Shown piece by piece: positions 30,015 to 62,713 of a stretch of DNA of 64,000 nucleotides. Under the pieces are notes generated by a model, which saw only the letters and a program-made list of their open reading frames with translations, had not been told where the DNA came from and did not search any database. Location of the stretch: positions 49,579 through 113,578 of the forward strand of contig CACDUZ010000003.1 in assembly GCA_902556105.1 (NCBI GenBank), in the 5' to 3' direction. A program made the position numbers and the translations under genes. The first letter of the stretch is position 1, and every line of letters starts with the position of its first letter. Origin of the DNA: an uncultured SAR86 cluster bacterium. Its GTDB lineage: Bacteria; Pseudomonadota; Gammaproteobacteria; Magnimaribacterales; D2472.

Positions 30015-30091
30015 AAAACGTATAACAGTTTTCTACTTAGACACTATTTCCGCATAGAATATTTAAATATTAAACATATGGGGGATATTAA

Positions 30092-36673: not shown

Positions 36674-37186
36674 TTGAACCAAGAATTAGTTACTTATATA
36701 GTTCTTGGTTCATACGAAAGACTTAAAAATCTAAAATTACCATCTTCTAACAAATTTGAGGAATATCTTTCTACAAGATTCTCAGATAAAAGCTCCCTTG
36801 AGAAGGATCTTGATGAATTAATTGCTAATTCAAAAGGTGGCCTCATTGTATTGCTTCCACCATCATCCTTTCCAAGTGTAAATGCAAAAAAGGCACTCAA
36901 AAAGATATCGATGATTGATCTTTCTACCTGGGGTTGGTTTAAGTTCAATAAAAATAACAATGATGTGATTCAGAATCTAAAAAAAATTTCAGCTACTATT
37001 CGGAGCATACCCGACATCGAACAAGGAATATTTTTTACAAAAAGACTTTATTTTTCAGTAGGCGGAATAGGGAAGCTGGGTAAATCACCTTTCAAAGAGA
37101 TTTCTAAAAGATTTTATTCAAGAATTGATCCACAAAATCCATTGCCTGCACTTATAATAAGAACAAAAAATTTTAATATATTTTAA
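36674..37186 (+). CDS. hypothetical protein (TTG start)
   Basis: 170-aa ORF tightly packed between metY and ccmA. No recognisable motif. Confidence 0.35.
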   Translation: MNQELVTYIVLGSYERLKNLKLPSSNKFEEYLSTRFSDKSSLEKDLDELIANSKGGLIVLLPPSSFPSVNAKKALKKISMIDLSTWGWFKFNKNNNDVIQNLKKISATIRSIPDIEQGIFFTKRLYFSVGGIGKLGKSPFKEISKRFYSRIDPQNPLPALIIRTKNFNIF

Positions 37187-37761
37187 TGAATAATAATTAT
37201 CTTATAGTTGCCGAAAATATAGGCTACAAGATCAATGAAAATAAGCTTTTTCATAACCTTTCCTTTGATGTTGCTGAAGGAGAGGCCCTCCATATATGTG
37301 GTGATAATGGTTCTGGTAAATCTACCCTAATAAGAATAATTTTAGGAATAACCAAACAGACAAAAGGCAATATAAAAAATAATTCTTCACATGGAATAAC
37401 TTATCTTGGGCATAAGAATGCCATTAAAAACTACTTAACACTTGAAGATAATATCTTATTAATGGAGCTAAACGATAAAGAAGAGCTTAATAAGTATATT
37501 GAAATACTAAATTTGAGAAAATATATGGATGTAATAGCTGCAAACTTATCTTTTGGCCAACAGAAAAAATTAGCATTGTTAAGAATTTTTCTAAATAACT
37601 CAGACCTAATTATTTTGGATGAGCCTTTTGTTGGTTTAGATATTGAAACTCAAGATATATTGAGTGAGTTCTTAAATAACCAATTAAAAATGAATAAATC
37701 TATTATTTATACCTCGCATATATCGTGTCAGATTGAATCAAAGATATTAAAAATAAATTAA
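37186..37761 (+). CDS. ccmA: cytochrome c biogenesis heme exporter ATPase CcmA
   Basis: Walker A GDNGSGKST, ABC signature LSFGQQKK and Walker B LIILDEP. First gene of the ccm cluster. Confidence 0.85.
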   Translation: MNNNYLIVAENIGYKINENKLFHNLSFDVAEGEALHICGDNGSGKSTLIRIILGITKQTKGNIKNNSSHGITYLGHKNAIKNYLTLEDNILLMELNDKEELNKYIEILNLRKYMDVIAANLSFGQQKKLALLRIFLNNSDLIILDEPFVGLDIETQDILSEFLNNQLKMNKSIIYTSHISCQIESKILKIN

Positions 37762-37767
37762 CTACCA

Positions 37768-38415
37768 ATGAAGATAATAAGATTAGAATTTTTAAAACTA
37801 AAGAAAAAAACTAGAACTTGGCTAGGGCCTGTACTGGTATTTTGGTTAATGATGATCGCATATCCTCTGACCGTAGAATTTCTTCAAGAAAAGCTTGAGG
37901 TTGGTTTTTTCTCAGTGCTATGGATAGCAATTTTGATTTCAATGATGCTTGCAACTGAAGATATATTCTTAGAGGATTTTAATGATGGCACTTTAGAACA
38001 AATAATGATTAAAACCTCATCTTTTTCAACCTTAGTATCTGTAAAAATTCTTACTTATTGGATTTTTGTTGGTATCCCAATTTCAATTCTTAGCTTCATT
38101 TTTTCATTTGGTACCACTGAGGATCTTGCTCTAAGTCTTATGATATTTCCTTTATCTATTATCAGCTCATACATATTTTTAAATCTATTTGTAATGGGTA
38201 ACGCACTTAGCCTTAATAAGGGTTCTGTATTAGGTGCTTTAGTAACTATGCCATTAGCGTTGCCAGTTTTAATTGTCTTGGGAAAAAGCATAATCGCCAT
38301 TCAATTGAGTATTAATTACTTAGGATTTATTTTTTTATTATTGGGCTGCTTATCTATTATAATAGTGACAGTGCCTTTAGTTGTTTCTTATATAATTAAA
38401 GCTCATTTAGAATAA
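37768..38415 (+). CDS. ccmB: heme exporter membrane protein CcmB
   Basis: A 215-aa six-helix hydrophobic protein between ccmA and ccmC. Confidence 0.85.
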   Translation: MKIIRLEFLKLKKKTRTWLGPVLVFWLMMIAYPLTVEFLQEKLEVGFFSVLWIAILISMMLATEDIFLEDFNDGTLEQIMIKTSSFSTLVSVKILTYWIFVGIPISILSFIFSFGTTEDLALSLMIFPLSIISSYIFLNLFVMGNALSLNKGSVLGALVTMPLALPVLIVLGKSIIAIQLSINYLGFIFLLLGCLSIIIVTVPLVVSYIIKAHLE

Positions 38416-38438
38416 AACTATTCAGCACACAATATATA

Positions 38439-39170
38439 GTGATTAAAAAGTTTATACATCAATTTGCTTCGCCCAAAACATATTTATTTCAAGTAAATAA
38501 GTTCTACAACTATATATTCTTTATCTCAGTTTTTATTTATATATCATCAATAACTTGGGGTTTGCTGTTTACTCCTGAAGATTTTGTACAAGGAAACTCT
38601 TTTAGAATAATTTATCTTCATGTACCTGCATCTTTTATATCCCAGTCACTTTATGCAGCGATGGCTGTCTCAAGTATTGTATATCTTGTCTGGAGAGTTA
38701 AGTTGGCTGCCTATTTGGTTATAGCAATAGCTCCAATAGGAGCTATGACTACTTTTATTGCTCTTATATCAGGTTCTATATGGGGAATTCCAACCTGGGG
38801 AACATGGTGGCAATGGGATGCAAGAATAACCTCTACATTAATTTTATTTATTATGTACTTAGGTTTAATCTCATTTCATAATTCATTTAGTAACTATGAA
38901 AAAGCAGACAAGTTATTATCTTGGCTTGTGATAGTTGGCGCAGTAAATATTCCAATAATCAAAAAATCAGTAGACTGGTGGAGCACTCTTCATCAATCAG
39001 CCTCTATAACGCTCACCAATAAACCAAGCATAGACCCATCGATGTTATATCCACTAATTGGATCAATCATTGGATTTTTTGGCTTAATATTATGTTTAGT
39101 TTTACTTTCTTCTAAAAATCAAATCTTAATAAGAGAAAAAACAAAATCTTGGATTAAAGATTATGTTTGA
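38439..39170 (+). CDS. ccmC: heme exporter / heme lyase subunit CcmC
   Basis: WWD motif: WGIPTWGTWWQWDARITS. Confidence 0.9.
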   Translation: MIKKFIHQFASPKTYLFQVNKFYNYIFFISVFIYISSITWGLLFTPEDFVQGNSFRIIYLHVPASFISQSLYAAMAVSSIVYLVWRVKLAAYLVIAIAPIGAMTTFIALISGSIWGIPTWGTWWQWDARITSTLILFIMYLGLISFHNSFSNYEKADKLLSWLVIVGAVNIPIIKKSVDWWSTLHQSASITLTNKPSIDPSMLYPLIGSIIGFFGLILCLVLLSSKNQILIREKTKSWIKDYV

Positions 39171-39330
39171 ATTTGCATTTAATTCTTTTTATGAGGCCAT
39201 ATATATGAATGGACACGGCATTTATGTTTGGAGTGTTTTAGCAATTGTGTGTTTAAGCTTGTTAGTTTTTTTCACACTTTATAGTTCAAAAATTAAGCAA
39301 ATAAAAAAGAAATTAAATGAACCCAATTAG
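39163..39330 (+). CDS. ccmD: heme exporter protein CcmD (55 aa; below the ORF-track cutoff)
   Basis: Hand translation: MFEFAFNSFYEAIYMNGHGIYVWSVLAIVCLSLLVFFTLYSSKIKQIKKKLNEPN. It has the CcmD-like M.GhG.YVW motif plus a single TM helix and a basic tail. It overlaps the ccmC stop and the ccmE start. Confidence 0.7.
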   Translation: MFEFAFNSFYEAIYMNGHGIYVWSVLAIVCLSLLVFFTLYSSKIKQIKKKLNEPN

Positions 39331-39727
39331 AAAGAAAAGAATTTATAGCATACTATTCGTGCTTCTATTTTCAGTTTCTGGTATTTCATTAATACTTTAC
39401 TCACTTAATTCTAATTTAGATTACTTTTTTACGCCTACTGAATTAAAAAAACAAAATATTCCTAGTGATAAGAGAATTAAATTAGGTGGTATGGTCTTAA
39501 AAGGCTCAGTAGAAAGAGAGGCATCAGAGATATCCTTTGTTGTAACTGATTATGAGAATTCATTAAGAGTTATTTATGATGGAATTGTTCCTGATTTATT
39601 TAAAGAAGAAAGTGGTGTAGTCGTTCTTGGTTTCTATAGAGATGATATGATTTATGCTGAAGAGGTCTTAGCCAAGCATGATGAAAATTATATGCCTCCA
39701 AATCTAGATATAAAGAATGATAGTTGA
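39317..39727 (+). CDS. ccmE: cytochrome c-type biogenesis heme chaperone CcmE
   Basis: N-terminal anchor, LGGMVLKGSV, and the heme-binding region VLAKHDENYMPP. Confidence 0.9.
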   Translation: MNPIRKKRIYSILFVLLFSVSGISLILYSLNSNLDYFFTPTELKKQNIPSDKRIKLGGMVLKGSVEREASEISFVVTDYENSLRVIYDGIVPDLFKEESGVVVLGFYRDDMIYAEEVLAKHDENYMPPNLDIKNDS

Positions 39728-41603
39728 AGTTTCTCATTTTTTATCATTGCTAGCTACAGGATTATTTTTTCTAGTTGGTTCTTTTGCACTTCTTACAAAA
39801 CCTTCAGCTTATATTTCAAATCTGATAACTAGAACTTATTCTCATGGCTTTTTATTTTTAATAGCCTCATTTTCAATATATGTATGGCTAGCAATAACAG
39901 ACAACTTTAGTGTCCAATATATTGCTAGTCATTCAAATAGTCAGCTTCCAACTTTTTACAAAATATCATCTATATGGAGTGCTCATGAAGGCTCAATGTT
40001 CTTGTGGATAGTTTTTTTATCATTATGGGGATTTATTTTTAATATCACTATAAAAAATGAACAAATATTAAAATCGAACACAATTGGGATAATATCTTTG
40101 ATTCTTGTTGGCTTTTTATTATTTTTACTTATTACCTCAAATCCTTTTCAGACAATATTGCCAATCGCACCGCTAAATGGAGCAGATATCAACCCAGTCC
40201 TTCAAGACCCTGCATTAGCAATTCATCCTCCAACGCTTTATTTGGGATATGTTGGATTTGTAATACCATTTGCATGCGCTCTTTCTTTTCTAATTAATGG
40301 AGATCCTGGCATTAAATGGGAGTCGTTAATTCAAAAATGGTCAGTTGCTGCATGGATATTTCTAACAATAGGAATCACCCTAGGTAGTTGGTGGGCATAC
40401 TATGAACTAGGTTGGGGTGGTTATTGGTTTTGGGATCCTGTTGAGAATGTGGCATTAATGCCTTGGCTCGCTGCCACTGCATTTATTCACTCTTTAAGTG
40501 TCTCTATTAAATCTTCGAATTTAAGAATATGGACAATATTATTATCTATATCAGTATTTTCCTTAAGTCTTTTTGGTGCATTTATAGTTAGATCTGGAAT
40601 TATTGATAGTGTTCACTCATTTGCTAACGACCCTGAAAGAGGGCTGTATTTACTTGCGTTTATAGGAATAATTATTGTGAGTTCAATGTCTTTGTTTGTA
40701 GCAAAACTTTCAATAATCAAACCCTCTAAAACAATTAAAAGATTTTCAAAAGAATCATTTATATCTATAAATAATATTTTTTTTGGGGCATTAATATTTT
40801 CTGTAATGCTTGGTGTTACATATCCATTAATATATGAATTTTTATTTGACCAGAAGATTAGTGTTGGAGCTCCCTTTTATAACGCAATATTTATACCTAT
40901 GGTTATTCTTGCATGTATATTTATGTTTTTCTCTATTGATTCTAAATGGTCAAGAAGTTTAAATTTTCATTTTTTTATAGCTCCAATATCACTTTCTGTT
41001 ATTTCCTCTATCATTACCACTTTGTTGATAAGTTATATTTTTGACACAAGCAATCTTGCAATATTAATATCATTATTTGCAGGATTCATAGTAGTTTATA
41101 GATATGTAATTGAAATAATGAATTCTTTTTTCATGAAAAAATATCTTAATCCATTTAGTGCGATAGCTCACTTTGCTTTAGGCTTGCTTATAATATCCAT
41201 TTCATTCAACAGCTTGCTAAGCTCTGAGAGAGCATTAAATATCAAAATTAATGAGTTTGAGGAATATAAGGACCTAAAAATTTTCTTTAAAGATATCAAG
41301 GTTTTAAAAAACTCCAATCATGACTCTATTGAAGCAACATTTGTTTTGGAAAATCAAAAAGGTAGGACTTTTGATCTGAGCCCTGAAAAAAGAAGATACT
41401 TTACAAGAGGTCAAATAACTACTGAAACAGCAATTTTTATAATGCCACTAAAAGATATATATATGACTATTGGCGATCAATTGGATGACGGGAGTTGGAT
41501 TGTAAACATACAAATCAATTATTTAATTAGATGGATTTGGTTTTCAGCTGGTTTGATGGCATTTGCTGGTATGGTTTTAATGTTTTCTAAAAGAAATATT
41601 TAA
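39717..41603 (+). CDS. ccmF: cytochrome c heme lyase subunit CcmF
   Basis: 628-aa polytopic protein with WWD motif WWAYYELGWGGYWFWDPVEN. Confidence 0.92.
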   Translation: MIVEVSHFLSLLATGLFFLVGSFALLTKPSAYISNLITRTYSHGFLFLIASFSIYVWLAITDNFSVQYIASHSNSQLPTFYKISSIWSAHEGSMFLWIVFLSLWGFIFNITIKNEQILKSNTIGIISLILVGFLLFLLITSNPFQTILPIAPLNGADINPVLQDPALAIHPPTLYLGYVGFVIPFACALSFLINGDPGIKWESLIQKWSVAAWIFLTIGITLGSWWAYYELGWGGYWFWDPVENVALMPWLAATAFIHSLSVSIKSSNLRIWTILLSISVFSLSLFGAFIVRSGIIDSVHSFANDPERGLYLLAFIGIIIVSSMSLFVAKLSIIKPSKTIKRFSKESFISINNIFFGALIFSVMLGVTYPLIYEFLFDQKISVGAPFYNAIFIPMVILACIFMFFSIDSKWSRSLNFHFFIAPISLSVISSIITTLLISYIFDTSNLAILISLFAGFIVVYRYVIEIMNSFFMKKYLNPFSAIAHFALGLLIISISFNSLLSSERALNIKINEFEEYKDLKIFFKDIKVLKNSNHDSIEATFVLENQKGRTFDLSPEKRRYFTRGQITTETAIFIMPLKDIYMTIGDQLDDGSWIVNIQINYLIRWIWFSAGLMAFAGMVLMFSKRNI

Positions 41604-41606
41604 GTT

Positions 41607-42128
41607 ATGAAAATAGTTTTTAAATTTATTGTTTTAATTTTACCACTTTCGTTAATATTCACTTTTTATTTTCTTCTTACAAATAATGAATCTTATCCAG
41701 GAGCTGACTATGATGTTTTTGATATACCAAAATTTGAGTTAGGAAGTCTTAATAATGACAAAACACTTAATGAGAGTTCTTTAGATAAAGACTTTATTTT
41801 AAATGTATGGGCAAGTTGGTGTATTACGTGCAGGGTAGAACACCCTTATTTAATGAGTCTCAGTAAAAAAGGAATACCTGTAGTTGGACTAAACTATAAA
41901 GATGAGAAGGAGGATGGTCTTGAATGGATTGAAAGATATGGAAATCCTTACAAAACAATTCTATATGACTACAAAGGGACTTTGGCTATGGACCTTGGAG
42001 TAACAGGAGCTCCAGAAACTTTTTTAATTATCGATGGAAAAATTGTTGTTCGTTATCAAGGCGAAGTTAATGAACTCATTTGGAATGACGTTTTCTTACC
42101 TGTAATTGAAAGTAAGGATATCTTTTAG
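41607..42128 (+). CDS. ccmG: thiol:disulfide interchange protein CcmG/DsbE
   Basis: WASWCITC (CXXC) and GAPETFLIDG motifs. Confidence 0.88.
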   Translation: MKIVFKFIVLILPLSLIFTFYFLLTNNESYPGADYDVFDIPKFELGSLNNDKTLNESSLDKDFILNVWASWCITCRVEHPYLMSLSKKGIPVVGLNYKDEKEDGLEWIERYGNPYKTILYDYKGTLAMDLGVTGAPETFLIIDGKIVVRYQGEVNELIWNDVFLPVIESKDIF

Positions 42129-42129
42129 G

Positions 42130-42498
42130 ATGAAATACTTAAGATTTTTTATATTATTTTTGTGTATGAATCTCTGCGCCGACACTTTATATAATTTTGA
42201 AAATGAAAAGGATGAAGCTAGATTCAATAACCTCATAAAGGATATAAGATGCCCTAAATGTATATCAGGTTCGCTATCAAGTTCAAATGCTCCGATATCT
42301 GAAGATTTAAAATTAAAGATTGTTGAAATGATCAAAGAAGATAAAACAGACGAAGAAATAAAAAAATACGTATCAATAAGATTTGGAAAAGAATCACTTT
42401 ATGAGCCTGAGCTCAATAAGCAGACATACTTTCTATGGTATTCACCATTTATTTTATTATTTTTTGCACTATCATTTTTTATTCTAAGAAATAAGTAA
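42130..42498 (+). CDS. ccmH: cytochrome c-type biogenesis protein CcmH
   Basis: IRCPKC (LRCxxC-type) motif and a C-terminal TM helix. The ATG at 42130 directly follows the ccmG stop and yields signal peptide MKYLRFFILFLCMNLCA. The tracked ORF opens at 42106. Confidence 0.8.
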   Translation: MKYLRFFILFLCMNLCADTLYNFENEKDEARFNNLIKDIRCPKCISGSLSSSNAPISEDLKLKIVEMIKEDKTDEEIKKYVSIRFGKESLYEPELNKQTYFLWYSPFILLFFALSFFILRNK

Positions 42499-42501
42499 AA
42501 G

Positions 42502-43287
42502 ATGGTTATTTTTTACCTTTTAACAATATTTGCGGCCCTGCCAATAACTGCATATGTTTTAGCACAAAAAACGAGTCATAAAGGATTAATATTTGGTTCC
42601 ACAATCATTATTCTGACAATTTGCTTGGTACTTTTCATAAGCAAGTTTGCTTTTATAGGGTCTGTACAAAAACAAGTATTAAGTAACAAGATATTTGATC
42701 AAATTTATATAGATGAAAGAATATCTCCTGAATATCTTAACGAAATAAACTCTATTTTAAGCGAGCAGGAGTTAAAAAATTGGTTGATCAACTTATCAGG
42801 TAAATCGATTGATCTAAATAAGCTTAATTCTGCTGAAAGTTTAATAACTTTTTCCGAGAGATTTTTTAATTCCAATGAAGAAAAACTAATCTTCTATGGA
42901 ATGTACACAACACTCAGAGATGCAAAATTTCCTGAATTTAAAGACTCACGTCTTGTTATAGATTCTAATTCATCGACACCCTGTTTGATTGAGAGTGGAA
43001 TTATAAATTTATTTATAATGAATGGACCAGAAATTCCATTAGCAAAAAAAGATTTTCTAGATTTTACAGATATTCAAGTTACAAATTTAGATAGTGTTAT
43101 ACCCGGATTTGACCTTGCTTCAGCTCATTTAAACCAGGAAACAATAGAATTTGGTATTGATATAGTATGTAGTAATAGTAATGAAACTTACTATTTAAAA
43201 AATCTTATAGTTCTTGATAAAAATAAGAGCTTTAATACTTATAAAATTGATTTAAATGAATGGTTAAAAAAATCACAAGAGTTATAA
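42502..43287 (+). CDS. hypothetical membrane protein in the CcmI position
   Basis: Two N-terminal TM helices followed by a soluble domain of about 200 aa. It sits last in the ccm cluster where CcmI normally lies. I could not see TPR-like repeats. Confidence 0.4.
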   Translation: MVIFYLLTIFAALPITAYVLAQKTSHKGLIFGSTIIILTICLVLFISKFAFIGSVQKQVLSNKIFDQIYIDERISPEYLNEINSILSEQELKNWLINLSGKSIDLNKLNSAESLITFSERFFNSNEEKLIFYGMYTTLRDAKFPEFKDSRLVIDSNSSTPCLIESGIINLFIMNGPEIPLAKKDFLDFTDIQVTNLDSVIPGFDLASAHLNQETIEFGIDIVCSNSNETYYLKNLIVLDKNKSFNTYKIDLNEWLKKSQEL

Positions 43288-43314: not shown

Positions 43315-45513
43315 ATGCAGCTAAAACATATAAAACTATCAGGTTTTAAAAGCTTCGTTGATCCAACGAAGATATCATTCCCAACAAATATGGTTGGTGT
43401 TGTAGGTCCCAATGGCTGCGGTAAATCTAATGTAATCGATGCAGTAAGATGGGTACTGGGAGAATTATCAGCTAAGAATCTTAGAGGCGAGTCGATGGTT
43501 GATGTAATTTTTAATGGCTCTGAAAAAAGAAAGGCATCTGGTCAGTGCAGCATAGAACTTTTATTTGATAATTCAACTGCAAAAATTGGTGGTGAATACG
43601 CCTCCTTTAATGAAGTATCTATAAAAAGAGTTATGACAAGAGACGCTCAATCAGATTACTTTATTAATAATACAAAATGTCGTAGAAAAGATGTTCAAGA
43701 TATATTTCTTGGAACAGGACTTGGACCAAGTTCATATGCAATTATCGAACAAGGAATGGTAAGTAAACTTGTAAGTGCAAAACCTGATGAACTTAGAACT
43801 CATTTAGAAGAAGCCGCTGGAGTTTCTAAATATAGAGAAAGAAGAAGAGAGACTGAATCTAGAATAAAAAGAACAAAAGAAAACCTATCAAGAGTTAAAG
43901 ACATAAGAGATGAAATAGCAAGATTAATAAAGCGTCTTGAAAATCAGGCGAAAGCTGCAGATAAATATAATTTGCTTAAGCAAAAAAAATCAAATCTTGA
44001 ACTAGATAAAGCGATAATATTTTCAATTGAAGCAAAAAATAATAGAGATGATCTTCAAAAAAAATTAGATGCTTTAAACAGAGATCTTAAAATTAAAAAT
44101 GCAGAATCTGAAACAATTCAGTCTCAAATAGACCAGTTTAGAACTCAAAATGAATCTGTATTAAATGAATATGAAGCTGCTCAAAAGAATTTTTATTCAA
44201 TAGGTGCTGAAATTGCAAAGAGAGAAGCTAATTTACAAAATATTAATAGAAGTGAATCAGAGACTAAAGAAAGTCTTCAAAAGGCTATCCAAAATCTTGA
44301 AAAGGCAAAAGAAACAGAGAAAAATTTCGATGAATTAAGTCCAAGCGAAAAAGCTATGCATATCTTAGATAGCATTATTAGTACGATTGAAAAATTTCAA
44401 ATAAAGAACGATAGCATTGGGGAAAAAGCAATTGAACTCAAAGGTTTGCTGACAGACATATTAAATATTGCCACCGCTCAATCAAAATCACTTACAGATG
44501 AATATCTTTCAAGGCAAAGTGATCTCGAGGGCCAGATATCTGAGGCTGAAAAACTTAAACTATCAATAGAAAATGAAATGAAGGAATTTGTTGGCAAAAG
44601 TTCAGAGGCTGAATCAATTTTAATATCTTTAAGACAAAAACAATCGAAGTTTAATGACGAGTTAAGAGAGCTTGAAAATAATAAGTCTATATCTGACTTA
44701 GACTCTAGATCAATTTCAGAAAATATTACAAATATACGAATTGAACTTAAAACGTATGAAATTAACTTAGATAATTCAAATAAAAAAATTAAGGAAGCTG
44801 GTATAGATATTGATTCAATTGAATTCTCTGAATATAAAGGAATCACCTTAGATGATTTAGATAATAAGTTAACTGATATAGAAACAAAAATAATAAGATT
44901 GGGAGCAATAAATCTTGCAGCACCTGAGGAAATAGAAGAAGAATCTAAAAGGAAAGAAGATTTAGATAATCAATATAATGATCTTACCGAAGCATTAGAT
45001 AAGCTTACAGGAGCAATTAAAAAAATAGACCAAGAGACCAAAACAATTTTTAAAGATAGTTTTGATTCTGTAAACGTAAAGTTGAAAGAAATGTTTCCTA
45101 AGCTTTTTGGAGGTGGGGTTGCTGAATTAACTTTAACAGATGATGATGCATTAAATGCAGGTGTTATTTTAATGGCTAGGCCACCAGGTAAAAAGAACTC
45201 ATCCATATCTCAATTATCTGGCGGTGAAAAAGCTTTAACTGCTTTAGCTTTGGTATTTGCAATATTTGATCTAAACCCTGCACCATTTTGTCTTCTTGAT
45301 GAGGTTGACGCTCCTCTGGATGATCTTAATACATTAAGATTTATAGATATGGTTGAAGAGATGTCTAAATCAGTTCAATTTATCTTCATTACCCATAATA
45401 AAGTGTCAATGGAAAGAAGCGATCATCTAATGGGTGTTACCATGCAGGAAGCAGGTGTTTCAAGAATGGTTTCTGTAGATGTGAATCAAGCTCTTGAGCT
45501 TGCAGAATCATAG
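43315..45513 (+). CDS. smc: SMC-family chromosome segregation ATPase, unusually short (732 aa)
   Basis: Walker A GPNGCGKSN, Q-loop IIEQG, AAGVSKYRERRRE, C-terminal signature LSGGEKALTALALVFA and Walker B LLDEVDAPLDD. The middle is heptad-like coiled coil only. Confidence 0.8.
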   Translation: MQLKHIKLSGFKSFVDPTKISFPTNMVGVVGPNGCGKSNVIDAVRWVLGELSAKNLRGESMVDVIFNGSEKRKASGQCSIELLFDNSTAKIGGEYASFNEVSIKRVMTRDAQSDYFINNTKCRRKDVQDIFLGTGLGPSSYAIIEQGMVSKLVSAKPDELRTHLEEAAGVSKYRERRRETESRIKRTKENLSRVKDIRDEIARLIKRLENQAKAADKYNLLKQKKSNLELDKAIIFSIEAKNNRDDLQKKLDALNRDLKIKNAESETIQSQIDQFRTQNESVLNEYEAAQKNFYSIGAEIAKREANLQNINRSESETKESLQKAIQNLEKAKETEKNFDELSPSEKAMHILDSIISTIEKFQIKNDSIGEKAIELKGLLTDILNIATAQSKSLTDEYLSRQSDLEGQISEAEKLKLSIENEMKEFVGKSSEAESILISLRQKQSKFNDELRELENNKSISDLDSRSISENITNIRIELKTYEINLDNSNKKIKEAGIDIDSIEFSEYKGITLDDLDNKLTDIETKIIRLGAINLAAPEEIEEESKRKEDLDNQYNDLTEALDKLTGAIKKIDQETKTIFKDSFDSVNVKLKEMFPKLFGGGVAELTLTDDDALNAGVILMARPPGKKNSSISQLSGGEKALTALALVFAIFDLNPAPFCLLDEVDAPLDDLNTLRFIDMVEEMSKSVQFIFITHNKVSMERSDHLMGVTMQEAGVSRMVSVDVNQALELAES

Positions 45514-46116
45514 ATGAGCACAAATTCAGAAATTTATCTTATTGGATTTGCTATAGTAATATTTCTCAGCATTGTCTTTTTATTTATAAGAAAAATATCG
45601 AATGCTGGAAAATTAAAAGTAAAGATTGAATCCTTGCCTGAATCATTTGATGAAGAAATGAGCAATAAAAATCAACAATCATTTGAATTTGAGGCAAATG
45701 AAGATAAAGATCAAGAGCTAGTAATACTTAACTTGATTTCAGTTGATAGATCTTTATTTGATATAGATCAACTTTTTGGATTTCTTTCAAATTATGGAGG
45801 AAAAATTACAAATAAGTTTTTTTTATTTTGTGACGAAAATAGTAAAGAAAAATTCAGAGTAATAAATGCGCTTAATCCAGGAACTTTCGATGAGGACACA
45901 AAGACTTTTGCTATTGCAATTGTTTCAGACATTAATAGTGTTGAAGACCCGCTAAATACTGTAAAAAAAATGATTGAGTTTTCAGTTAGTTTTGCAGAAA
46001 AGTTTCATGCAACCTTGTGCGATCAAGAAAGAACACCAATCACAAAACAAATGATTCTTCACATCGAAACAAAAGCACAAGACGTAGCAAGAATTAAGCA
46101 ACTTAAAAATAGTTAA
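45514..46116 (+). CDS. zipA: cell division protein ZipA (minimal form)
   Basis: N-terminal TM anchor. The C-terminal domain aligns by eye with the E. coli ZipA FtsZ-binding domain (NPGTFDEDTKTF vs KPGTFDPEMKDF; LCDQERTPITKQ vs LDDQRRMMTPQK). Position between smc and the ligase supports the call. Confidence 0.72.
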   Translation: MSTNSEIYLIGFAIVIFLSIVFLFIRKISNAGKLKVKIESLPESFDEEMSNKNQQSFEFEANEDKDQELVILNLISVDRSLFDIDQLFGFLSNYGGKITNKFFLFCDENSKEKFRVINALNPGTFDEDTKTFAIAIVSDINSVEDPLNTVKKMIEFSVSFAEKFHATLCDQERTPITKQMILHIETKAQDVARIKQLKNS

Positions 46117-46139: not shown

Positions 46140-47429
46140 ATGTCAAAACCTTGGAAAATAATTCAAGAATTAGAAACTGATAATAGTCGTCTTTTTAAAG
46201 AAAGTGTTGTCGAAAAAAACCTAAATGATAAAACTTTTCAAGAAGGTTTGGCTATGTGCCTAGACCCGCTAGTTACTTTTGGTGTCAAACAAGTGCCTGA
46301 ATCTGATGCTGATGGTGAAGGGTTAAAGTGGGATCATTTTAGAGCGGCAGCAAAATTATTAATTGAAAGAGAAAAGACTGGCCACGCTGCACGAGATTTA
46401 ATTATTGATTTAGTTAGTTCTTCTAAAAAAGATCAATGGAATGACTGGTATAGAAGAATATTAATTAAAGATCTTCGTTGTGGCGTGAGTGAAAAGACTG
46501 TTAACAATGTAGCAAAAAAAATGAATTTGAAGTACCGTGTTCCAGTTTTTTCTTGCATGTTAGCTCACGATGGAGCAAAGCATCCTAAAAAAATTAAAGG
46601 CGACTGTTTAGTTGAGTACAAGTATGATGGAGTGAGAGTAATAGCAATTGTCATGAAAGGGAAAGCTACTTTGTACAGTAGAAATGGCAAAATATTTAAT
46701 AATTTTCCACATATTGAAAATGCTTTAAGCAAACCAGAATACAATAATATAGTATTTGATGGCGAGGTGATGAGTGATGACTTTCAAGCATTAATGAAAC
46801 AGGTATATAGAAAGTCTGGTGCTCAAACAGACGATGCATATCTTGCCTTGTTCGACATGCTCCCATTAAATGAATTCAATAAAGGCAAAAGCAATTTAAA
46901 TTCTATTGAAAGAAAAAATGAACTCAATAAGATAGCCAAGAATTTTGATGTTAATGTAATTAAATTAGTAGATTATGAAATTGTGAATTTTGATAATGAC
47001 ATAGGACAAGCTAAGTTTGCTGCTATGAATAAAGAAGCTCTTGAAATGGGTTTTGAAGGGTTAATGATAAAGCCAAATGAAAATTATTATGAATCTAAAA
47101 GAAGTCATGCTTGGCTAAAAATTAAACCATTTATAGAAGTTACATTGAAGATAGTAGACATTCAAGAAGGTACAGGTAAACATTCTGGTAAATTAGGTGC
47201 TTTTCAAGTTGAAGGATCTGACGATGGAAAATTCTTTTCTTTAAGTGTTGGAAGTGGCTTAACAGATGAAGATAGAGAAAAGTTTTGGGAATCAAGAGAC
47301 CAGCTTTTAGGGAGGTTGATAGAGGTAAGAGCTGATGCTATTACGCAAAGTATTGAAGGAGAGCATTACAGCCTTAGATTTCCAAGATTTAAAAATTTTA
47401 GGGGCTTTAAAAAAGATGAAAAAATATAA
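46140..47429 (+). CDS. ATP-dependent DNA ligase (T7-like catalytic core with N-terminal extension)
   Basis: Adenylation motif I VEYKYDGVR, motif III VFDGEVM, motif IV FEGLMIKP, motif V WLKIKP, and an OB-fold tail. No NAD-ligase motifs (no KxDG inside a BRCT/zinc-finger architecture). Confidence 0.88.
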   Translation: MSKPWKIIQELETDNSRLFKESVVEKNLNDKTFQEGLAMCLDPLVTFGVKQVPESDADGEGLKWDHFRAAAKLLIEREKTGHAARDLIIDLVSSSKKDQWNDWYRRILIKDLRCGVSEKTVNNVAKKMNLKYRVPVFSCMLAHDGAKHPKKIKGDCLVEYKYDGVRVIAIVMKGKATLYSRNGKIFNNFPHIENALSKPEYNNIVFDGEVMSDDFQALMKQVYRKSGAQTDDAYLALFDMLPLNEFNKGKSNLNSIERKNELNKIAKNFDVNVIKLVDYEIVNFDNDIGQAKFAAMNKEALEMGFEGLMIKPNENYYESKRSHAWLKIKPFIEVTLKIVDIQEGTGKHSGKLGAFQVEGSDDGKFFSLSVGSGLTDEDREKFWESRDQLLGRLIEVRADAITQSIEGEHYSLRFPRFKNFRGFKKDEKI

Positions 47430-48027
47430 ATTTATTTATTATTTATTATTTATATCAGTTTTTGTAATCCAATCTTGCACAACGAGGCCGCCAGAAAATC
47501 CAGATAATATTTGTCTCATATTCAAAGAAAAAAGAAGCTGGTATAAGGCTGTCATGAGAAGTGAAAAAAGATGGAAAGTGCCTCCATATGTTTTAATGTC
47601 ATTTGTATATCAAGAATCAAGCTTCCAGTCTGATGCAAGGCCGGAAAGAGAAAAGCTTCTTGGTTTTATTCCATGGTTTAGACCATCAACAGCTGTAGGT
47701 TATTCACAAGCTTTAGTGAATACTTGGGAAGATTATAAGGATGAAACTGGTAATACAAGAGCGAGTAGAAAAGATTTTGCAGACTCGGCAGATTTTATTG
47801 GATGGTATGCCAGTAAAGGCTATTATCAAGGCTTTGAAAGAACAGATGCTAGGTCGTTATATCTTGCTTATCATGAAGGATATGGTGGATTTAAGAAAAA
47901 AACTTATAGAAAAAAACAATGGCTTATTAAAGTTTCAGATAGGGTGCAGGCAAGATCTACAAAATATCAAAAACAATATTGGGGATGTGCGAAAGAATTG
48001 AAGAAAAAGAGATTTATATTTTTTTAA
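47416..48027 (+). CDS. lipoprotein with lytic-transglycosylase (SLT)-like domain
   Basis: The ATG at 47416 gives lipoprotein signal MKKYKFIYYLLFISVFVIQSC. VYQESSF (catalytic Glu-Ser) and AVGYSQAL resemble SLT domains. The tracked start at 47335 lies inside the ligase gene. Confidence 0.55.
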   Translation: MKKYKFIYYLLFISVFVIQSCTTRPPENPDNICLIFKEKRSWYKAVMRSEKRWKVPPYVLMSFVYQESSFQSDARPEREKLLGFIPWFRPSTAVGYSQALVNTWEDYKDETGNTRASRKDFADSADFIGWYASKGYYQGFERTDARSLYLAYHEGYGGFKKKTYRKKQWLIKVSDRVQARSTKYQKQYWGCAKELKKKRFIFF

Positions 48028-48028: not shown

Positions 48029-50896
48029 TTATATATTTTTGATCTCAAACTTTAGATTTTTCATCTCTTCAGAATAATTTTCACCAGCGATCACCGCTTT
48101 TTTAGATTCATTAAATAAATATTTTCTTGAAACATTCTCTAAATCTTTTAGAGAACACTCCTTTACCAAAGCTCTAAATCTTAGTCTTTGATCAATACTT
48201 TTTCTATCTAGATTATTAGCAAAATCACTCATTGCCTCACCATATGGAGATAATGGTTTATCTATACTAGAAATAACACCAAGGATGCCTTCATCGAGCT
48301 GATTTTGAGAAATTCCTTTTAAAGACCATTCTCTAGAATTTCTAAATTCATTAAATGTTTCAGTACATTTTGGATCGCGGTATGAAAAGAATTTAAATAC
48401 TTGATTTTTTGAGTCTTGCATTGCTCCAGCACCATAAGCACCACCTTTTTCTCTTATAGCTGAATGTAAGTAACCATTTCTTAAAACAGCTCCTAAAACA
48501 CTTAGAGCAGGAGCGTCTTCATGAAATGCATCGACAGTTGGAAATGCTTCAGCACAATAAGATACCTGTGCGCCAGTGATCCAGCCTATAGAGGCTTCTT
48601 GAATATCAAAATAACTTTGAGGCATCTGTGAAGTATTTTCTGAATTAAAATCAAAATTAAGTTGAGTTTGATCCATATCTAAAGAAGATGAGGTGAAGGT
48701 AAAAATAGGCTGAGAAACAATCTTGGATTTAATATTTTTAAGCAACTCAAGATATTTGTTTAAAGATAAATCATTATTAATTTCTCGAGCGAGTGCCCCA
48801 GTATTAGTTATAAAGTTAATACCTGAAGCAATATCATTTGTTGATGAAATATTATTTATTTGAGCAGCAGCATTACTCATTGCAAGAACGTGGCCGTTTT
48901 GAATAACAGACTTATCGTTATCCGATGCAATAAAAGTCAACATATCTTTAATTCTATTTTTATCTGTAAATTTTGCATTACCAACCATCTCAATCATTAA
49001 ATCCTGCATTTTATTTTCATTCTTCTCTAAGGACTTGGATGTAACTTTAATAGCCAAAGAATGCTCAGTCCTATTTTCATTTGGTAAAAGTATGAAATTT
49101 GCAGATATACCTCCAGTTACTGCTGATTGTATTTTTTGAACCTCTTCATAATTTTTATTTCCAATGCCAACATCAGTCAAAGTACTTGAATATAAAGAAG
49201 CAATGTTAAATTCCTCTTTTGTAAGCGGCTGGCATGGAAAAATTATGGAATGATATGTAATTCCATTTGTACCAGCTTTATAAAAATAATTTTCTGTATT
49301 GTTATGGCTTGTTTTTAAATGTCTTGCGTAGGCTCTTGATTCTGGAATATCATCTTTTGTCACTTTTGGAAGAACCTCAGGATCATCAATATGCTCTTGT
49401 CTTTCTTTAAGATTAACTGTCAGATCAACTATTCTTTGTTTATCCTTGTCTGTTAAAGTTTTTGATTTCTGAGTAACCTTATCTTGTATTATTTTATCTT
49501 TTTCATTATTAAAATTTACATCAGGAACTAGGGAATAATTTATTCGATGATTATTATCAATAATTTTTTCTTTTATAAGGTTTTCAATATAATTTTTATT
49601 TTTTAGATTCTTTTTGATTACATCAAATGATGAATCTAAATCCAAGACTTTTAGAGGATCATCATTGTGCAAGCATGCAGGAAGACAACCTAGCATGATT
49701 TGAAGACCATATGGCATTCCAGAACCAGTTATTTCCCTTTGTCTTATTTCTAGTTGATGAAGAGATGAGCTTATAAGATCCTCAGAAATACCATTTTTAA
49801 CTACATCTTTAAGACAATTCATTATTAAATCTTCAACTTGCTGTTGATTATTTGAATCAACTCCCTCCAAACCTGCAGCAAATACAAGTTCTTTATGATC
49901 TGCTTCAAGACCAGTCAACGGAGACAAAGATTTACCAAGATCTGTGTTCTCTAAAACTTTACGTAATGGCGAAGCTGAATTATCTAAAAGTATATTAGCC
50001 ATCAAATATGACTCTAATAGTTCAACAGGATCATGACTTTCACCTAGCAGCCAACCTAGGACAACGTGATGATTATTTTCATCTTCAGGCATAGGATTAT
50101 AGAATTCAGAAACAGTTTTTGGGGCATCAATCCTATTCTCATTCTTAACATTGATATCATTTTTTTCAGGTTTAAAACTTTTAAGTACATTTTCGTTTAT
50201 ATAACTTTGAATTTCTAATGGATCAATATCTCCAAATGTAAAGAATGTCGCATTTGAGGGATGATAGTGTTTCTTATGAAAATTTACTAAGTACTCATGG
50301 GTGAGGTCAATTATATTCTCAGGATTGCCTCCACTGTTATGTTTATATGTTGAAGAGGGATATAGATGTTTAGACATGCCATGCCACAATTGACTTGAAA
50401 TTGAGCTCATTGCACCTTTCATTTCATTAAATACCACCCCTTTAATTTCTAGCTTGCTATTAACATCATTTTCTTCAGAAAATTCGAGTCGATGACCTTC
50501 TTGAAGAAAATCTAACTCATCTAAATTAGGAAAAAATGATGAATCAAGATAAACACTTAATAAATTATTAAAATCTTTATCATTTTGTGTAGCAAATGGG
50601 TATGCAGTCCAATCACTAGAAGTAAAAGCATTCATAAAAGTATTCAAAGATCTTCTAATCATCATAAAAAATGGATCTCTAACAGGATATTTCTTTGATC
50701 CACATAAGGCCGTATGTTCTAGAATATGCGCAACTCCAGTTGAGTCTTCTGGAATGGTTCTAAATGCAACCATAAAAACCTTTTCATCACTTTTAGAATC
50801 TAAGTGAATATGTTTGCAATTAAACTCAGATTCAGTATATATTTGTGCATTGAGGTTTAATAAATTTATAAACTTTTGATCTTCAAGATTAAACAT
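48029..50896 (-). CDS. M16-family zinc peptidase (PreP/M16C-like, 955 aa)
   Basis: Inverted zincin motif HILEHTALCGS near the N-terminus. The length and repeated-domain layout are typical of presequence-protease-like enzymes. Confidence 0.88.
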   Translation of the reverse strand: MFNLEDQKFINLLNLNAQIYTESEFNCKHIHLDSKSDEKVFMVAFRTIPEDSTGVAHILEHTALCGSKKYPVRDPFFMMIRRSLNTFMNAFTSSDWTAYPFATQNDKDFNNLLSVYLDSSFFPNLDELDFLQEGHRLEFSEENDVNSKLEIKGVVFNEMKGAMSSISSQLWHGMSKHLYPSSTYKHNSGGNPENIIDLTHEYLVNFHKKHYHPSNATFFTFGDIDPLEIQSYINENVLKSFKPEKNDINVKNENRIDAPKTVSEFYNPMPEDENNHHVVLGWLLGESHDPVELLESYLMANILLDNSASPLRKVLENTDLGKSLSPLTGLEADHKELVFAAGLEGVDSNNQQQVEDLIMNCLKDVVKNGISEDLISSSLHQLEIRQREITGSGMPYGLQIMLGCLPACLHNDDPLKVLDLDSSFDVIKKNLKNKNYIENLIKEKIIDNNHRINYSLVPDVNFNNEKDKIIQDKVTQKSKTLTDKDKQRIVDLTVNLKERQEHIDDPEVLPKVTKDDIPESRAYARHLKTSHNNTENYFYKAGTNGITYHSIIFPCQPLTKEEFNIASLYSSTLTDVGIGNKNYEEVQKIQSAVTGGISANFILLPNENRTEHSLAIKVTSKSLEKNENKMQDLMIEMVGNAKFTDKNRIKDMLTFIASDNDKSVIQNGHVLAMSNAAAQINNISSTNDIASGINFITNTGALAREINNDLSLNKYLELLKNIKSKIVSQPIFTFTSSSLDMDQTQLNFDFNSENTSQMPQSYFDIQEASIGWITGAQVSYCAEAFPTVDAFHEDAPALSVLGAVLRNGYLHSAIREKGGAYGAGAMQDSKNQVFKFFSYRDPKCTETFNEFRNSREWSLKGISQNQLDEGILGVISSIDKPLSPYGEAMSDFANNLDRKSIDQRLRFRALVKECSLKDLENVSRKYLFNESKKAVIAGENYSEEMKNLKFEIKNI

Positions 50897-60334: not shown

Positions 60335-62698
60335 CTAAAAGCTATAAGAATATTTAAGTGTTACTGTTCTCGGCGGTATCCATTGCATCCAGTTTCTTGG
60401 TCTCCAGGATGTATCATCAACAGCATATATATATGCCTCTGTTCTTTCATCAGTAAGATTATCAATGGATAATTGAAGTTTTGAATATTCACTCAAGTCT
60501 AATCCAAGATTGAAATTTAATTTTGTGTAATCTGGAGAGCTTGAATTTGGATTTTCAGCAAATGTATTAAAACTATCTCCATAATAATTTACATCAAGTC
60601 TTGCATAGGATGGATATGACATAATTGTTGTGTCATACACTAATCCAAGATTCCACTGAGTTTCAACTGTATTAGGTAGTCTATCGCCAGCTGAAGCGCC
60701 AAGAGATGAAATATCTATTGATGTCTCAGCAGTCATGGAACTTCCAGCAAAATCAAGAGAAATTTCATCATTAACTGTATAAGTAAAGTCGACTTCCCAG
60801 CCTGAAGTCTCAGCTTTACCACCATTAAAATTATATCTCCATCCACAACCCGGTGTTACCTGAATGATAATTCCATCCCAATCAACATCAAAATATGTAA
60901 CATTGGCACTATAATTTTCGCCTCTTGCTTTCACTCCAAATTCTGTAGTCTCAGCTTCGTCTGAATTAAATCTTCTTGAGAAGTTTGCTTGTGCTGCTTC
61001 GTCACTACTACAAAAAGGTGGAAGTGGAGCCTGATTTCCACCAGGTCTATACCCGGCTGCCTGTGTTGCATATAAGGTTAAGTCATCATTAACCATGTAA
61101 TTAACAGCATATTTCATTCTTGTATCAGACTCTGACCCTGAAAGTTCAGCACAATCAGTTCCAGCAGGATCATTACCATCACATCCATTGCTGTCCATAA
61201 AGAAGATACCATACTGATAAGATTTTGATGCATCTTCAATTTCATAATCTCTGATACCAAATGTTAGTGTTAACTTGTCATTAACGTTGTAATCAAATTG
61301 ACCATAAAAAGATGTTTCTTCTTGCTCGTTGTACTCAGTATAGGAACCATAATAGAAGTATGGATAGCCTAAATGATCATCACAGAAAGGAGGACAATAA
61401 ATTGTTGCATCATAATCGCCAGGACTTAAACCAGCTGCATAAAGCATCACATACTCTAACCAATCTTGATCCACCGCATATTGAGTTTGTGATACTGAAT
61501 TAGGTTCTTCATTAAACTTATAATTATAATAACCTACAGTCCACTCAAATTTGCCGGGTTTTGAGATTAATCTTAGCTCAGTTGTTTCTTGGTAAGATTC
61601 ATCTCCATCTACGATTAGTGGTGCTGGAACATAATCATCCATATCAATTCTAGCCCAATCAGTTACTGAATCATCAGTTACTGTTCTGTCAGAAATAATT
61701 AAGTTAGCATCAAAAGCACCAAAGTCATATTTAATATTCGCAATTAAAGTTTCTCTAGTAATGTCCTCAGATTCATCCGCTGCTAAAGCATGTGCAAATT
61801 TTGGATCATAATTTGTAAGAACTCCATTAACACCCTCGCTGACTGCATATGTTGATATTGCACTTAAACGTGAACATGTTGGATCTCCATCAAAATTATA
61901 AAACCAACTGGTTGCCTGAGGACAGCCCTCAACATAGACGTCTGCACTTCCAGGCTTACTTTGCCCAGGTTCCAAGATACCATATGCTTTATTATTAAAA
62001 TTTACGTATCGTAAACTACCAGTTAACTTTCCACCGTTGTTAAATCCTAGAGTAATCATTAATTGAGAGTCATCCTCTTCGCCAACAGTTTTGCCTGTTT
62101 GAATGTTTTTATAAATACCAGGAGAAACTAATTGTGAATAGACCGTCCTAAGTGCAAGATTGTCTGATAACGATAAGTTATACATCATTTCAATGCTAGT
62201 TTCTGGATCACTGGCTTTAACTTTATCACCGTAACCAATTCTTATTTTTCCATAAGATGCACTTGAATCAGGCTTATTAGTTATGTATCTGATGGTTCCA
62301 CCAATTGCATTTGAACCGTAGAGTGTACCTTGAGGTCCTCTCAATACTTCAATACGCTCAACATCGAATAAACCCATCAATGCTCCACTTACCTCATCAA
62401 TATAAGTTGAAGAAGTTCCAGAGCCACGTTGTGAAGTTGATGTGTTTAAACCCCTAAAGGTGTAATAATTTGAGCCGCCCGGTGTTGAAACACCTGCCAA
62501 TGATCGCAAATAGTCTTCAGGGTTTGTTATGCCTCTTTCTTCTAGTGCTGTTTCAGTAATAACAGAAATATTCATTGGTATTTCTTGAAGTGTTTCAGCC
62601 TTCTTGTTAGCAGTAACAATAACTTCTTCAACTTCTTGTGAAATTAAAGATAATGGCATTAAAAACAATGCGACATACAATAAATTTAAATTTTTCAT
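60335..62698 (-). CDS. TonB-dependent receptor (TBDR-4)
   Basis: Signal peptide MKNLNLLYVALFLMPLSLISQ, TonB box EVEEVIVTANK, plug IEVLRGPQGTLYGSNA, and a barrel ending ...YSYSF. GAGGA sits 7 nt before the ATG at 62698. The tracked ATG at 62704 is only 1 nt from that Shine-Dalgarno. Confidence 0.88.
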   Translation of the reverse strand: MKNLNLLYVALFLMPLSLISQEVEEVIVTANKKAETLQEIPMNISVITETALEERGITNPEDYLRSLAGVSTPGGSNYYTFRGLNTSTSQRGSGTSSTYIDEVSGALMGLFDVERIEVLRGPQGTLYGSNAIGGTIRYITNKPDSSASYGKIRIGYGDKVKASDPETSIEMMYNLSLSDNLALRTVYSQLVSPGIYKNIQTGKTVGEEDDSQLMITLGFNNGGKLTGSLRYVNFNNKAYGILEPGQSKPGSADVYVEGCPQATSWFYNFDGDPTCSRLSAISTYAVSEGVNGVLTNYDPKFAHALAADESEDITRETLIANIKYDFGAFDANLIISDRTVTDDSVTDWARIDMDDYVPAPLIVDGDESYQETTELRLISKPGKFEWTVGYYNYKFNEEPNSVSQTQYAVDQDWLEYVMLYAAGLSPGDYDATIYCPPFCDDHLGYPYFYYGSYTEYNEQEETSFYGQFDYNVNDKLTLTFGIRDYEIEDASKSYQYGIFFMDSNGCDGNDPAGTDCAELSGSESDTRMKYAVNYMVNDDLTLYATQAAGYRPGGNQAPLPPFCSSDEAAQANFSRRFNSDEAETTEFGVKARGENYSANVTYFDVDWDGIIIQVTPGCGWRYNFNGGKAETSGWEVDFTYTVNDEISLDFAGSSMTAETSIDISSLGASAGDRLPNTVETQWNLGLVYDTTIMSYPSYARLDVNYYGDSFNTFAENPNSSSPDYTKLNFNLGLDLSEYSKLQLSIDNLTDERTEAYIYAVDDTSWRPRNWMQWIPPRTVTLKYSYSF

Positions 62699-62713
62699 AA
62701 TCATATCCTCTAT

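Follow-up and report, generated by a model that had tools for sequence, protein, structure and literature searches.

An ATP-dependent DNA ligase of the Pmar-Lig family occupies the ligA position in SAR86 bacteria

We analysed a 64,000-nucleotide stretch of DNA (the window) from an uncultured SAR86 cluster bacterium of the Suzuki/D2472 family (assembly GCA_902556105.1, contig CACDUZ010000003.1, positions 49,579 to 113,578) and describe a 429-residue ATP-dependent (AD-) DNA ligase encoded directly downstream of smc and zipA. Some close relatives carry a full-length NAD-dependent ligase, LigA, in the equivalent slot between zipA and an SLT_4 lytic transglycosylase gene, and the two ligase genes are mutually exclusive there. 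We regard it as quite probable that the protein is a functional ATP-dependent nick sealer of the AD-Lig P family, that it serves as both housekeeping and replicative ligase in place of LigA, and that its gene came from phage and took the place of ligA in situ. An earlier reading made from the letters of this DNA (the sequence-only reading) had proposed an in-situ non-orthologous displacement of ligA by a phage-type enzyme, and the relatives that hold LigA in the same zipA-SLT_4 slot strongly support that proposal.

The ligase gene and its domains are positioned in the window as follows.

46140..47429, + strand: ATP-dependent DNA ligase of the Pmar-Lig / AD-Lig P type, 429 aa, with an ATG start and a match to PDB 6RAU.
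46140..46583, + strand: N-terminal alpha-helical DNA-binding domain, approximately residues 1-148, aligned to 6RAU/6RAS and 5WFY (PMC6698739).
46584..47126, + strand: nucleotidyltransferase (adenylation) domain, residues 149-329 (PF01068, E = 3e-22).
47166..47402, + strand: OB-fold domain, residues 343-421 (PF14743, OB_2, E = 5.5e-11), with motif VI RFPRF at 413.

The protein is identical to GenBank RZO24129.1 / MFL2712579.1, annotated as 'MAG: ATP-dependent DNA ligase [SAR86 cluster bacterium]', where MAG denotes a metagenome-assembled genome. A GC content of about 32% and the presence of four TonB-dependent receptor genes in the window agree with SAR86. Its catalytic motifs are intact and comprise KYDG at 161 (motif I), DGEV at 207 (III), LFD at 237 (IIIa), EGLMIK at 306 (IV), WLKIK at 325 (V) and RFPRF at 413 (VI). 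Every motif quoted in the sequence-only reading was located among them, and motif VI is an addition to that set. Motif I reads K161-Y-D-G, and the codon for K161, the lysine that is adenylated, lies at 46620..46622. Eleven residues (K161, D163, G164, D207, G208, E209, E306, G307, K311, K327 and K329) are invariant in an alignment of 10 diverse family members. The closest solved structures are those of Pmar-Lig (PDB 6RAU, 6RAS, 6RAR and 6RCE), which are matched with E = 6e-137 across residues 6-429, and further PDB matches include the T4, archaeal, human Lig1, LigE and Chlorella virus ligases. The Pmar-Lig-type family is large, with 923 clusters at 50% identity and E < 1e-30.

The architecture of the ligase is three-domain and T4-like, with DNA-binding, nucleotidyltransferase and OB domains. 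Residues 6-148 align with residues 10-155 of 6RAU without large gaps, including the LIKDLRCGVSEKT block that holds the equivalent of R120; within LIKDLRCG (residues 108-115), Arg113 is the counterpart of Pmar-Lig R120. The DNA-binding domain of T4 ligase (5WFY) is matched weakly by residues 6-124, and Pfam has no model for this N-terminal domain. The sequence-only reading had noted an N-terminal extension of about 150 residues and left it unexplained; the extension is present, and it is a DNA-binding domain homologous to that of Pmar-Lig. The same domain makes the label 'T7-like' inappropriate, since T7-type ligases consist of nucleotidyltransferase and OB domains only. Pfam and NCBIfam detected none of the NAD-ligase domains (Ia, PF01653, PF03120, Zn finger, HhH PF12826 and BRCT PF00533) in the 429-residue protein, in agreement with that reading, and the NCBIfam models for ATP ligases were matched only below threshold.

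Pmar-Lig is the ATP-dependent ligase of Prochlorococcus marinus and has been crystallised on nicked DNA (PMC6698739). Its ATP-dependent nick sealing is biochemically proven (PMC6698739; bioRxiv 10.1101/2020.05.11.089284), and this enzyme, also named AD-Lig P and found in high-light Prochlorococcus, answers to the N-terminally extended ATP ligases of streamlined marine bacteria mentioned in the sequence-only reading (bioRxiv 10.1101/2020.05.11.089284). From this characterised homologue we infer that the SAR86 ligase uses ATP, not NAD+, and seals nicked duplex DNA. By analogy with the solved homologue, Lys161 would be adenylated by ATP in a step that needs motif VI of the OB domain, and the DNA-binding, nucleotidyltransferase and OB domains would encircle the nicked duplex. 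AMP would then be passed to the 5' phosphate, and attack by the metal-activated 3' OH would seal the nick.

The genes that border the ligase define the slot and were used for comparison with other genomes.

37186..43287, + strand: cytochrome c maturation cluster (ccmA/B/C/E/F/G/H and a 261-aa CcmI-like open reading frame (ORF)), the conserved upstream flank.
43315..45513, + strand: smc, 732 aa (TIGR02168, 800 bits), with a stop codon that abuts the zipA start.
45514..46116, + strand: zipA, 200 aa (PF04354), the upstream border of the ligase slot.
47416..48027, + strand: SLT_4 lytic transglycosylase, 203 aa, which bounds the slot on its downstream side; the true start is MKKYKF at 47416.
48029..50896, - strand: PreP/M16C peptidase, conserved in the flank and included both in the synteny comparison and in the host tree.

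As the sequence-only reading had stated, smc and zipA lie directly upstream of the ligase (TIGR02168 and PF04354, respectively). The zipA stop codon is separated from the ligase ATG by 23 nt, and the first 14 nt of SLT_4 fall within the ligase 3' end (window 47416..47429). The zipA-ligA order that the same reading gave for E. coli holds in strain MG1655, where ligA follows zipA directly on the same strand, and SAR86 relatives likewise have smc-zipA-ligA.

Species-representative genomes were scanned using an alignment of ZipA and SLT_4 as query, which makes the matches independent of ligase type. The scan returned 27 SAR86 loci (GTDB species representatives). Gene order at 23 of these is ccmF-ccmI-smc-zipA-ADlig-SLT_4-PreP, and one of the 23 (L048) is the original SAR86A scaffold. 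At three loci (L050, L055 and L056), the same two genes, zipA and SLT_4, instead enclose a full-length LigA of the NAD type, about 710-720 aa long, and the last locus (L059) is truncated or rearranged. Seven more LigA loci (L060-L066) were found in the slot, together with 20 more AD loci from metagenomes, and the tally over all collections is about 60 syntenic loci, with an AD-ligase at about 50 and full-length LigA at 10, one ligase each. The two ligases occur together between zipA and SLT_4 at none of the roughly 60 loci; the sequence-only reading had held that a side-by-side arrangement in relatives would indicate insertion. No ligA remnant is present in the zipA-ligase spacer of 0-23 nt. 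Among the LigA loci, L050 comes from a low-GC close relative with an SMC that is 81% identical, and its LigA (L050:7843-9999) has a KxDG motif, a C-terminal region resembling the BRCT end of LigA, and a 23-nt overlap with the SLT_4 start.

The LigA proteins of SAR86 relatives contain the detectable NAD-ligase domains with the exception of the Zn-finger model. Those of L050 and L060-L066 (about 717-719 aa) have no PF03119 match in the Pfam lists, although cysteine pairs are present, and by eye a long segment appears between two cysteine pairs in L050, a sequence rich in ambiguous bases. At the rearranged locus L059 (CACIJE010000003.1, single-cell genome AG-913-G13, approximately 8289-10441), PreP is on the + strand and is joined at its end to a partial SLT_4 directly downstream; neither a ligase nor zipA can be seen. 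This arrangement is probably an inversion produced by multiple displacement amplification or assembly of the single-cell genome, with no real biology behind it.

We next consider LigA elsewhere in the genome. None is encoded in the window, which represents about 5% of the genome (Pfam; ORFs of at least 569 aa). For other genomes, LigA presence was taken from the TIGR00575 entries of a published CheckM-type marker table (Table S1, PMC11582366), of which 47 columns were covered; TIGR00575 also belongs to the marker set of the closed HIMB1674 genome (PMC11582366). Within these columns TIGR00575 is scored 1 in Magnimaribacteraceae, in CHAB-I-7/TMED112 and in the Suzuki genera Su-G2 and Su-G3, and 0 in GCA_000252525.1 (SAR86A, Su-G10; 97% complete), in GCA_000384935.1 and GCA_000385055.1 (Su-G9 = AAA076-P13; 93-99% complete), and in several less complete low-GC genomes (PMC11582366). 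That paper gives the scores without discussing LigA absence. GCA_000252525.1 is the same assembly as AD-type locus L048. The question of a canonical ligA elsewhere, raised in the sequence-only reading, is addressed for three related AD-type genomes by a TIGR00575 score of 0 at 93-99% completeness, and by extension from such relatives LigA is probably absent from the genome of the window as well.

A bait search points the same way. The L050 LigA was compared with 5.8 billion proteins and the best 120 matches were grouped. A single rare cluster was found at 97% identity, and the next matches appear only from 65% identity. Given how abundant the AD-type lineages are, this gap would be expected to contain matches if they encoded LigA outside the slot. 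The best 120 matches fall into nine groups, and in the eight groups whose context was inspected (118/120 matches, all but the small group P0353/P0373) the arrangement is always smc-zipA-LigA-SLT_4.

The origin of the ligase was examined with neighbour-joining trees, which were also used for the hosts. All SAR86 AD-ligases form one clade with a bootstrap value of 100 and no interleaved phage sequence. Their nearest outgroups are ligases of 60-64% identity on metagenomic (IMG/VR) contigs that also carry a T4-type clamp loader, a head maturation protease, an exonuclease, a 2OG-Fe(II) oxygenase and tail proteins. Because of these phage genes, the outgroup contigs are assigned to uncultured marine myovirus-like (T4-like) phages; the idea that they are misclassified cellular DNA was rejected, since they have no SAR86 synteny and the phage genes are present. 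Isolated phages were also rejected as recent donors, as their best match has about 33% identity (Bacillus/Exiguobacterium and jumbo phages), and there was no recent transfer from a sequenced phage. Pmar-Lig lies on a separate branch, grouped with the metagenomic sequence MG_L134 at a bootstrap value of 100, and the replacements in SAR86 and Prochlorococcus are therefore independent of one another and drawn from a related marine phage gene pool. Overall, the tree shows a single origin within SAR86 and a phage-affiliated one. Other cellular lineages with an AD-ligase in the ligA slot were absent from the best 80 metagenome matches, all of which are SAR86 or phage-like, a comparison of limited reach.

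In the scheme that we propose, one ligase gene from the marine T4-like phage pool would have entered an ancestor within the SAR86 Suzuki/D2472 family at the ligA position, and the AD and NAD genes would since then have been mutually exclusive occupants of one slot. The ligase would be expressed from the gene string smc-zipA-[ligase]-SLT_4, which carries ligA in relatives. The replicative role is likewise a prediction.

Two features of the phage and metagenomic contigs were noted in passing. The contig L134 (Ga0209632_10000078, 96 kb), with its ligase at 6001-7305, groups with Pmar-Lig and is probably from Prochlorococcus or a cyanophage. In two distantly related marine phage contigs, a phrog_2319 protein is encoded upstream of the ligase, either immediately (L014:4361-5008) or one ORF away (L003:3619-4386), and it may be a conserved partner of the ligase in those phages.

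The ligase gene shows the properties of a long-resident chromosomal gene. Pairwise ratios of nonsynonymous to synonymous substitution (dN/dS) are 0.03-0.13 for the ligase, 0.03-0.06 for SMC, 0.05-0.42 for ZipA and 0.06-0.14 for PreP. The ligase is thus under strong purifying selection, like SMC, and is held more tightly than ZipA or PreP. Its GC content at third codon positions (GC3) is 0.228 against 0.19-0.22 for its neighbours, so that its base composition matches the host. The exact protein is present on 190 contigs, of which the longest measures 649 kb. Contigs of 372 kb and 1.19 Mb encode an orthologue with 85% identity, again at this locus. Contigs with the identical protein and contigs with the 85%-identical orthologue share the same 20-kb synteny, which recurs in many samples, be they single-cell genomes, MAGs, long-read contigs or short-read metagenomes.

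We compared the distribution of the two ligases with a host tree built by neighbour-joining from flanking proteins (approximately 2,400-3,000 columns). Its topology is (L055, L056 NAD), ((L062, (L064, L065)) NAD, ((L061 NAD, clade Z AD), (L063 NAD, (X, Y)))), where clade X is [L057 AD, (L060 NAD, (L048, L040 AD))] and clade Y is [L050 NAD, 21 AD species including the window]. Most of these nodes have bootstrap values of 91-100. Four LigA lineages (L061, L063, L060 and L050) are nested among AD lineages, and ligase type is therefore patchy on the host tree. The sequence-only reading had suggested comparing the locus across relatives to date the swap; this comparison supports displacement but gives no single datable event, and the swap was not one clean event.

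Both genes appear to have been inherited vertically. In the AD-ligase tree, Z and XY are reciprocal sister clades, and the ratio of ligase divergence to flank divergence is 0.74 between them and 0.69 and 0.71 within them. Since ligase divergence scales with that of the flanks, the AD gene has co-diverged with its hosts since before the split of Z from XY. The descent of LigA looks vertical too: the LigA/flank ratio of L050-L060 is 1.39, compared with 1.21-1.46 for clearly vertical close pairs, and on this basis re-import of the L050 and L060 LigA genes from distant lineages was rejected. Recent import of the X-clade ligases from Y was likewise unconvincing, because the X-Y ligase distance (0.92x) is only marginally low in comparison with that of the flanks (0.99-1.29x). 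The zipA and SLT_4 trees track the host tree and not the ligase type, so that the idea of a linked haplotype was rejected and the unit of exchange must be little more than the ligase gene.

The junction with SLT_4 also differs between the clades. The X and Y lineages have the same 14-nt ligase/SLT_4 overlap, in which the SLT_4 ATG sits in the ligase C-terminus ...KDEKI*. In clade Z the overlap is only 1-4 nt and the ligase ends in a phage-like ...GEKI*, an ending that phage ligases share. NAD-type relatives have a LigA/SLT_4 overlap of 20-23 nt and a different SLT_4 N-terminus. From the contrast of ...KDEKI* with 14 nt in X and Y and ...GEKI* with 1-4 nt in Z, we conclude that the SLT_4 N-terminus was remodelled after the swap. 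The equivalent junctions of L033-L058 and L075-L082 were compared with that of the window; in the X and Y lineages, the SLT_4 start and its first four codons (MKKYK) lie inside the ligase 3' end, and the ATG is supplied by the Asp codon of ...KDEKI*. The overlap of the ligase with the SLT_4 start codon suggests translational coupling.

Three other explanations were weighed. The protein could be an accessory repair ligase, with a LigA elsewhere in the genome still responsible for replication and the position in the slot incidental. Most bacterial ATP-dependent ligases are indeed accessory enzymes (PMC7470946), only 64 kb of this genome were inspected, and the protein has sub-threshold NCBIfam similarity to ligase-domain models of non-homologous end joining (NHEJ) and LigD. 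The NHEJ models nonetheless fall well short of their cut-offs (TIGR02779 reaches 97.6 of the required 227.75 bits, and TIGR02776 reaches 86 of 373), and a Pfam/NCBIfam scan of the window ORFs found no Ku, polymerase or phosphoesterase modules among the ligase domains or neighbouring genes. None of about 60 loci has both ligases in the slot, TIGR00575 is 0 in the three near-complete genomes of AD-type lineages within the marker-table columns covered, and no off-slot LigA was seen among the best 120 homologues (118 inspected) despite the abundance of AD-type lineages in metagenomes. An accessory role is thus very unlikely. A recent prophage or genomic-island insertion, or an artefact of binning or assembly, would fit the finding that the closest non-SAR86 relatives are on phage contigs, but is effectively refuted by the lack of flanking phage genes, by the 20-kb synteny seen across single cells, MAGs, long reads and short reads, by a GC3 like that of the neighbours and a dN/dS of about 0.05, and by the co-divergence of the ligase with its flanks at ratios of 0.69-0.74 within and between clades.

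The third alternative is that phage ligases entered the slot several times independently, as opposed to one entry followed by sorting or exchange within SAR86. The patchy ligase types on the host tree could be taken this way, as could the different junctions of Z (1-4 nt, with the phage-like GEKI retained) and of X and Y (14 nt). Against it, the AD-ligases are monophyletic with no phage sequence between them, Z and XY are reciprocal sisters, X and Y have an identical 14-nt junction, and ligase divergence scales with flank divergence; we consider multiple entries unlikely. Our preferred explanation, a phage-derived replicative ligase in place of LigA, has its own weak points. The sister relationship to phage has bootstrap values of 27-68 in trees that are neighbour-joining only, and the experimental support, in biochemistry or expression, consists of biochemistry of the homologue Pmar-Lig only. 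Genome-wide absence of LigA is taken from the 47 columns of the published marker table for related genomes; with 64 kb of the genome read, another ligase may lie outside the window, whether LigA, a truncated NAD-ligase or a further ATP-dependent enzyme.

The alternation of ligases raises a further possibility, to which we give about an even chance: the Suzuki/D2472 ligase slot would be a long-lived two-state locus whose state has changed between sister lineages no fewer than four or five times, the two genes never occurring together. The pattern would fit any of three models: two alleles kept as a polymorphism over a long time, reciprocal loss from an ancestral tandem, or homologous recombination that swapped the genes repeatedly. 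The tandem of both ligases, which the second model needs as an intermediate, was found at 0 of about 60 loci. A two-state locus, if true, would imply trans-lineage polymorphism or repeated recombination cassette swaps of an essential replication gene, and would mean that the cofactor class of the replicative ligase is freely interchangeable in nature. Sister lineages that differ only there could then show why bacteria normally use NAD+.

The closest known case is that of Prochlorococcus. Hjerde et al. reported that high-light strains have no full-length NAD-ligase and carry AD-Lig P at exactly the position of ligA in low-light strains, and that AD-Lig P requires ATP and exceeds the NAD-ligase of low-light strains in activity by a factor of more than 10; their preprint claims high-light Prochlorococcus as the first bacterium dependent on an ATP-dependent ligase (bioRxiv 10.1101/2020.05.11.089284). 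Truncated NAD-ligases on genomic islands and additional AD-ligases are also reported for Prochlorococcus. The SAR86 ligase belongs to the same family, with a full-length match at E = 6e-137, the same three domains, and a conserved R120 equivalent and catalytic motifs; its identity to AD-Lig P is roughly 55-57%, as estimated from related sequences. It too lies at the exact position that holds a full-length NAD-ligase in relatives. The slots themselves are different, gammaproteobacterial smc-zipA-[lig]-SLT_4 in SAR86 and a cyanobacterial position downstream of recA in Prochlorococcus, and the separate branch in the ligase tree indicates independent acquisition. In contrast to the clean ecotype split of Prochlorococcus, the two states alternate repeatedly among close lineages of SAR86.

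Other ligases are more distant. T4 ligase (PDB 6DT1, 5WFY) and the Rhizobium phage P10VF ligase (PMC12121391) have the same compact, DNA-encircling arrangement of helical DNA-binding, nucleotidyltransferase and OB domains, but the SAR86 gene differs from phage ligases in being chromosomal, compositionally ameliorated and vertically co-diverging, and isolated phages have no more than about 33% identity to it. With LigA (E. coli b2411; SAR86 L050 and L060-L066) it shares the slot, the operon neighbours and presumably the cellular job, but of the protein only the superfamily nucleotidyltransferase core is common; the SAR86 ligase lacks Ia, Zn-finger, HhH and BRCT domains, is 429 aa long against about 718 aa, and is predicted to use ATP instead of NAD+. 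The accessory ligases LigE, LigC, LigD and LigB have the PF01068 core in common with it, and LigE also the PF14743 OB variant. LigE, however, has no DNA-binding domain and carries a periplasmic signal. Ku is the partner of LigD and LigC, which also contain or act together with polymerase and phosphoesterase modules, and none of the four is known to replace LigA.

SAR86 bacteria are among the most abundant heterotrophs of the surface ocean, and LigA serves both as a 'universal' marker in estimates of genome completeness and as an antibacterial target. In these SAR86 lineages it would be suited to neither use. A 2020 review treated replication with an NAD-dependent ligase as universal among bacteria and called it an unexplained 'evolutionary enigma', with no bacterium then known to lack an NAD-dependent isoform (PMC7470946), and a 2025 review from the same group still presents LigA as the essential bacterial replicative ligase. 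SAR86 would be the second, independent exception after high-light Prochlorococcus, in another phylum and with the same ligase family, and two exceptions point to a recurrent solution in streamlined surface-ocean bacteria, not to a one-off. Our literature search on SAR86 and ligase found nothing relevant, and neither the replacement in SAR86 nor the repeated switching of one locus between ligase classes appears to be described in the literature searched. The sequence-only reading had taken the syntenic replacement as the notable part; the SAR86 case does seem unreported, but in-situ replacement of ligA by the same family was already described in Prochlorococcus. Unlike Prochlorococcus, SAR86 offers sister pairs with LigA or AD-ligase between identical flanks, a natural allele-swap experiment that could show what favours ATP over NAD+: gene size (1.3 vs 2.2 kb), NAD+ economy, activity or phage pressure.

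Several further observations concern the surrounding genes. SAR86 SMC is unusually short (window 43315..45513; also L061:6382-9369 and L055:5073-7256), with 732 aa in the window and 995 aa in deeper lineages, compared with about 1,170 aa for a typical SMC. The hinge domain (PF06470) was not detectable in SAR86 SMC even at E <= 1, and positions of approximately 343-668 of the TIGR02168 model have no match. What distinguishes the 995-aa form from the 732-aa form is a pair of matched blocks, each of about 130 aa, that flank a conserved central segment of about 60 aa (LSPSEKAMHILD...AQSKSLTDEYLSRQ). This pattern suggests that the two coiled-coil arms were shortened symmetrically and that a possible mini-hinge lies between them. 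Elsewhere in the window, the ORFs at 14390..16099 (+ strand, 569 aa) and 20068..21921 (+ strand, 617 aa) have no Pfam match at E <= 1e-5. Three genes for TonB-dependent receptors (about 912-937 aa) stand in tandem at 24219..32905 (+ strand), a block with a slightly higher GC content (0.36) than the window (about 32%), and a fourth TonB-dependent receptor gene is located at 60335..62704 (- strand).

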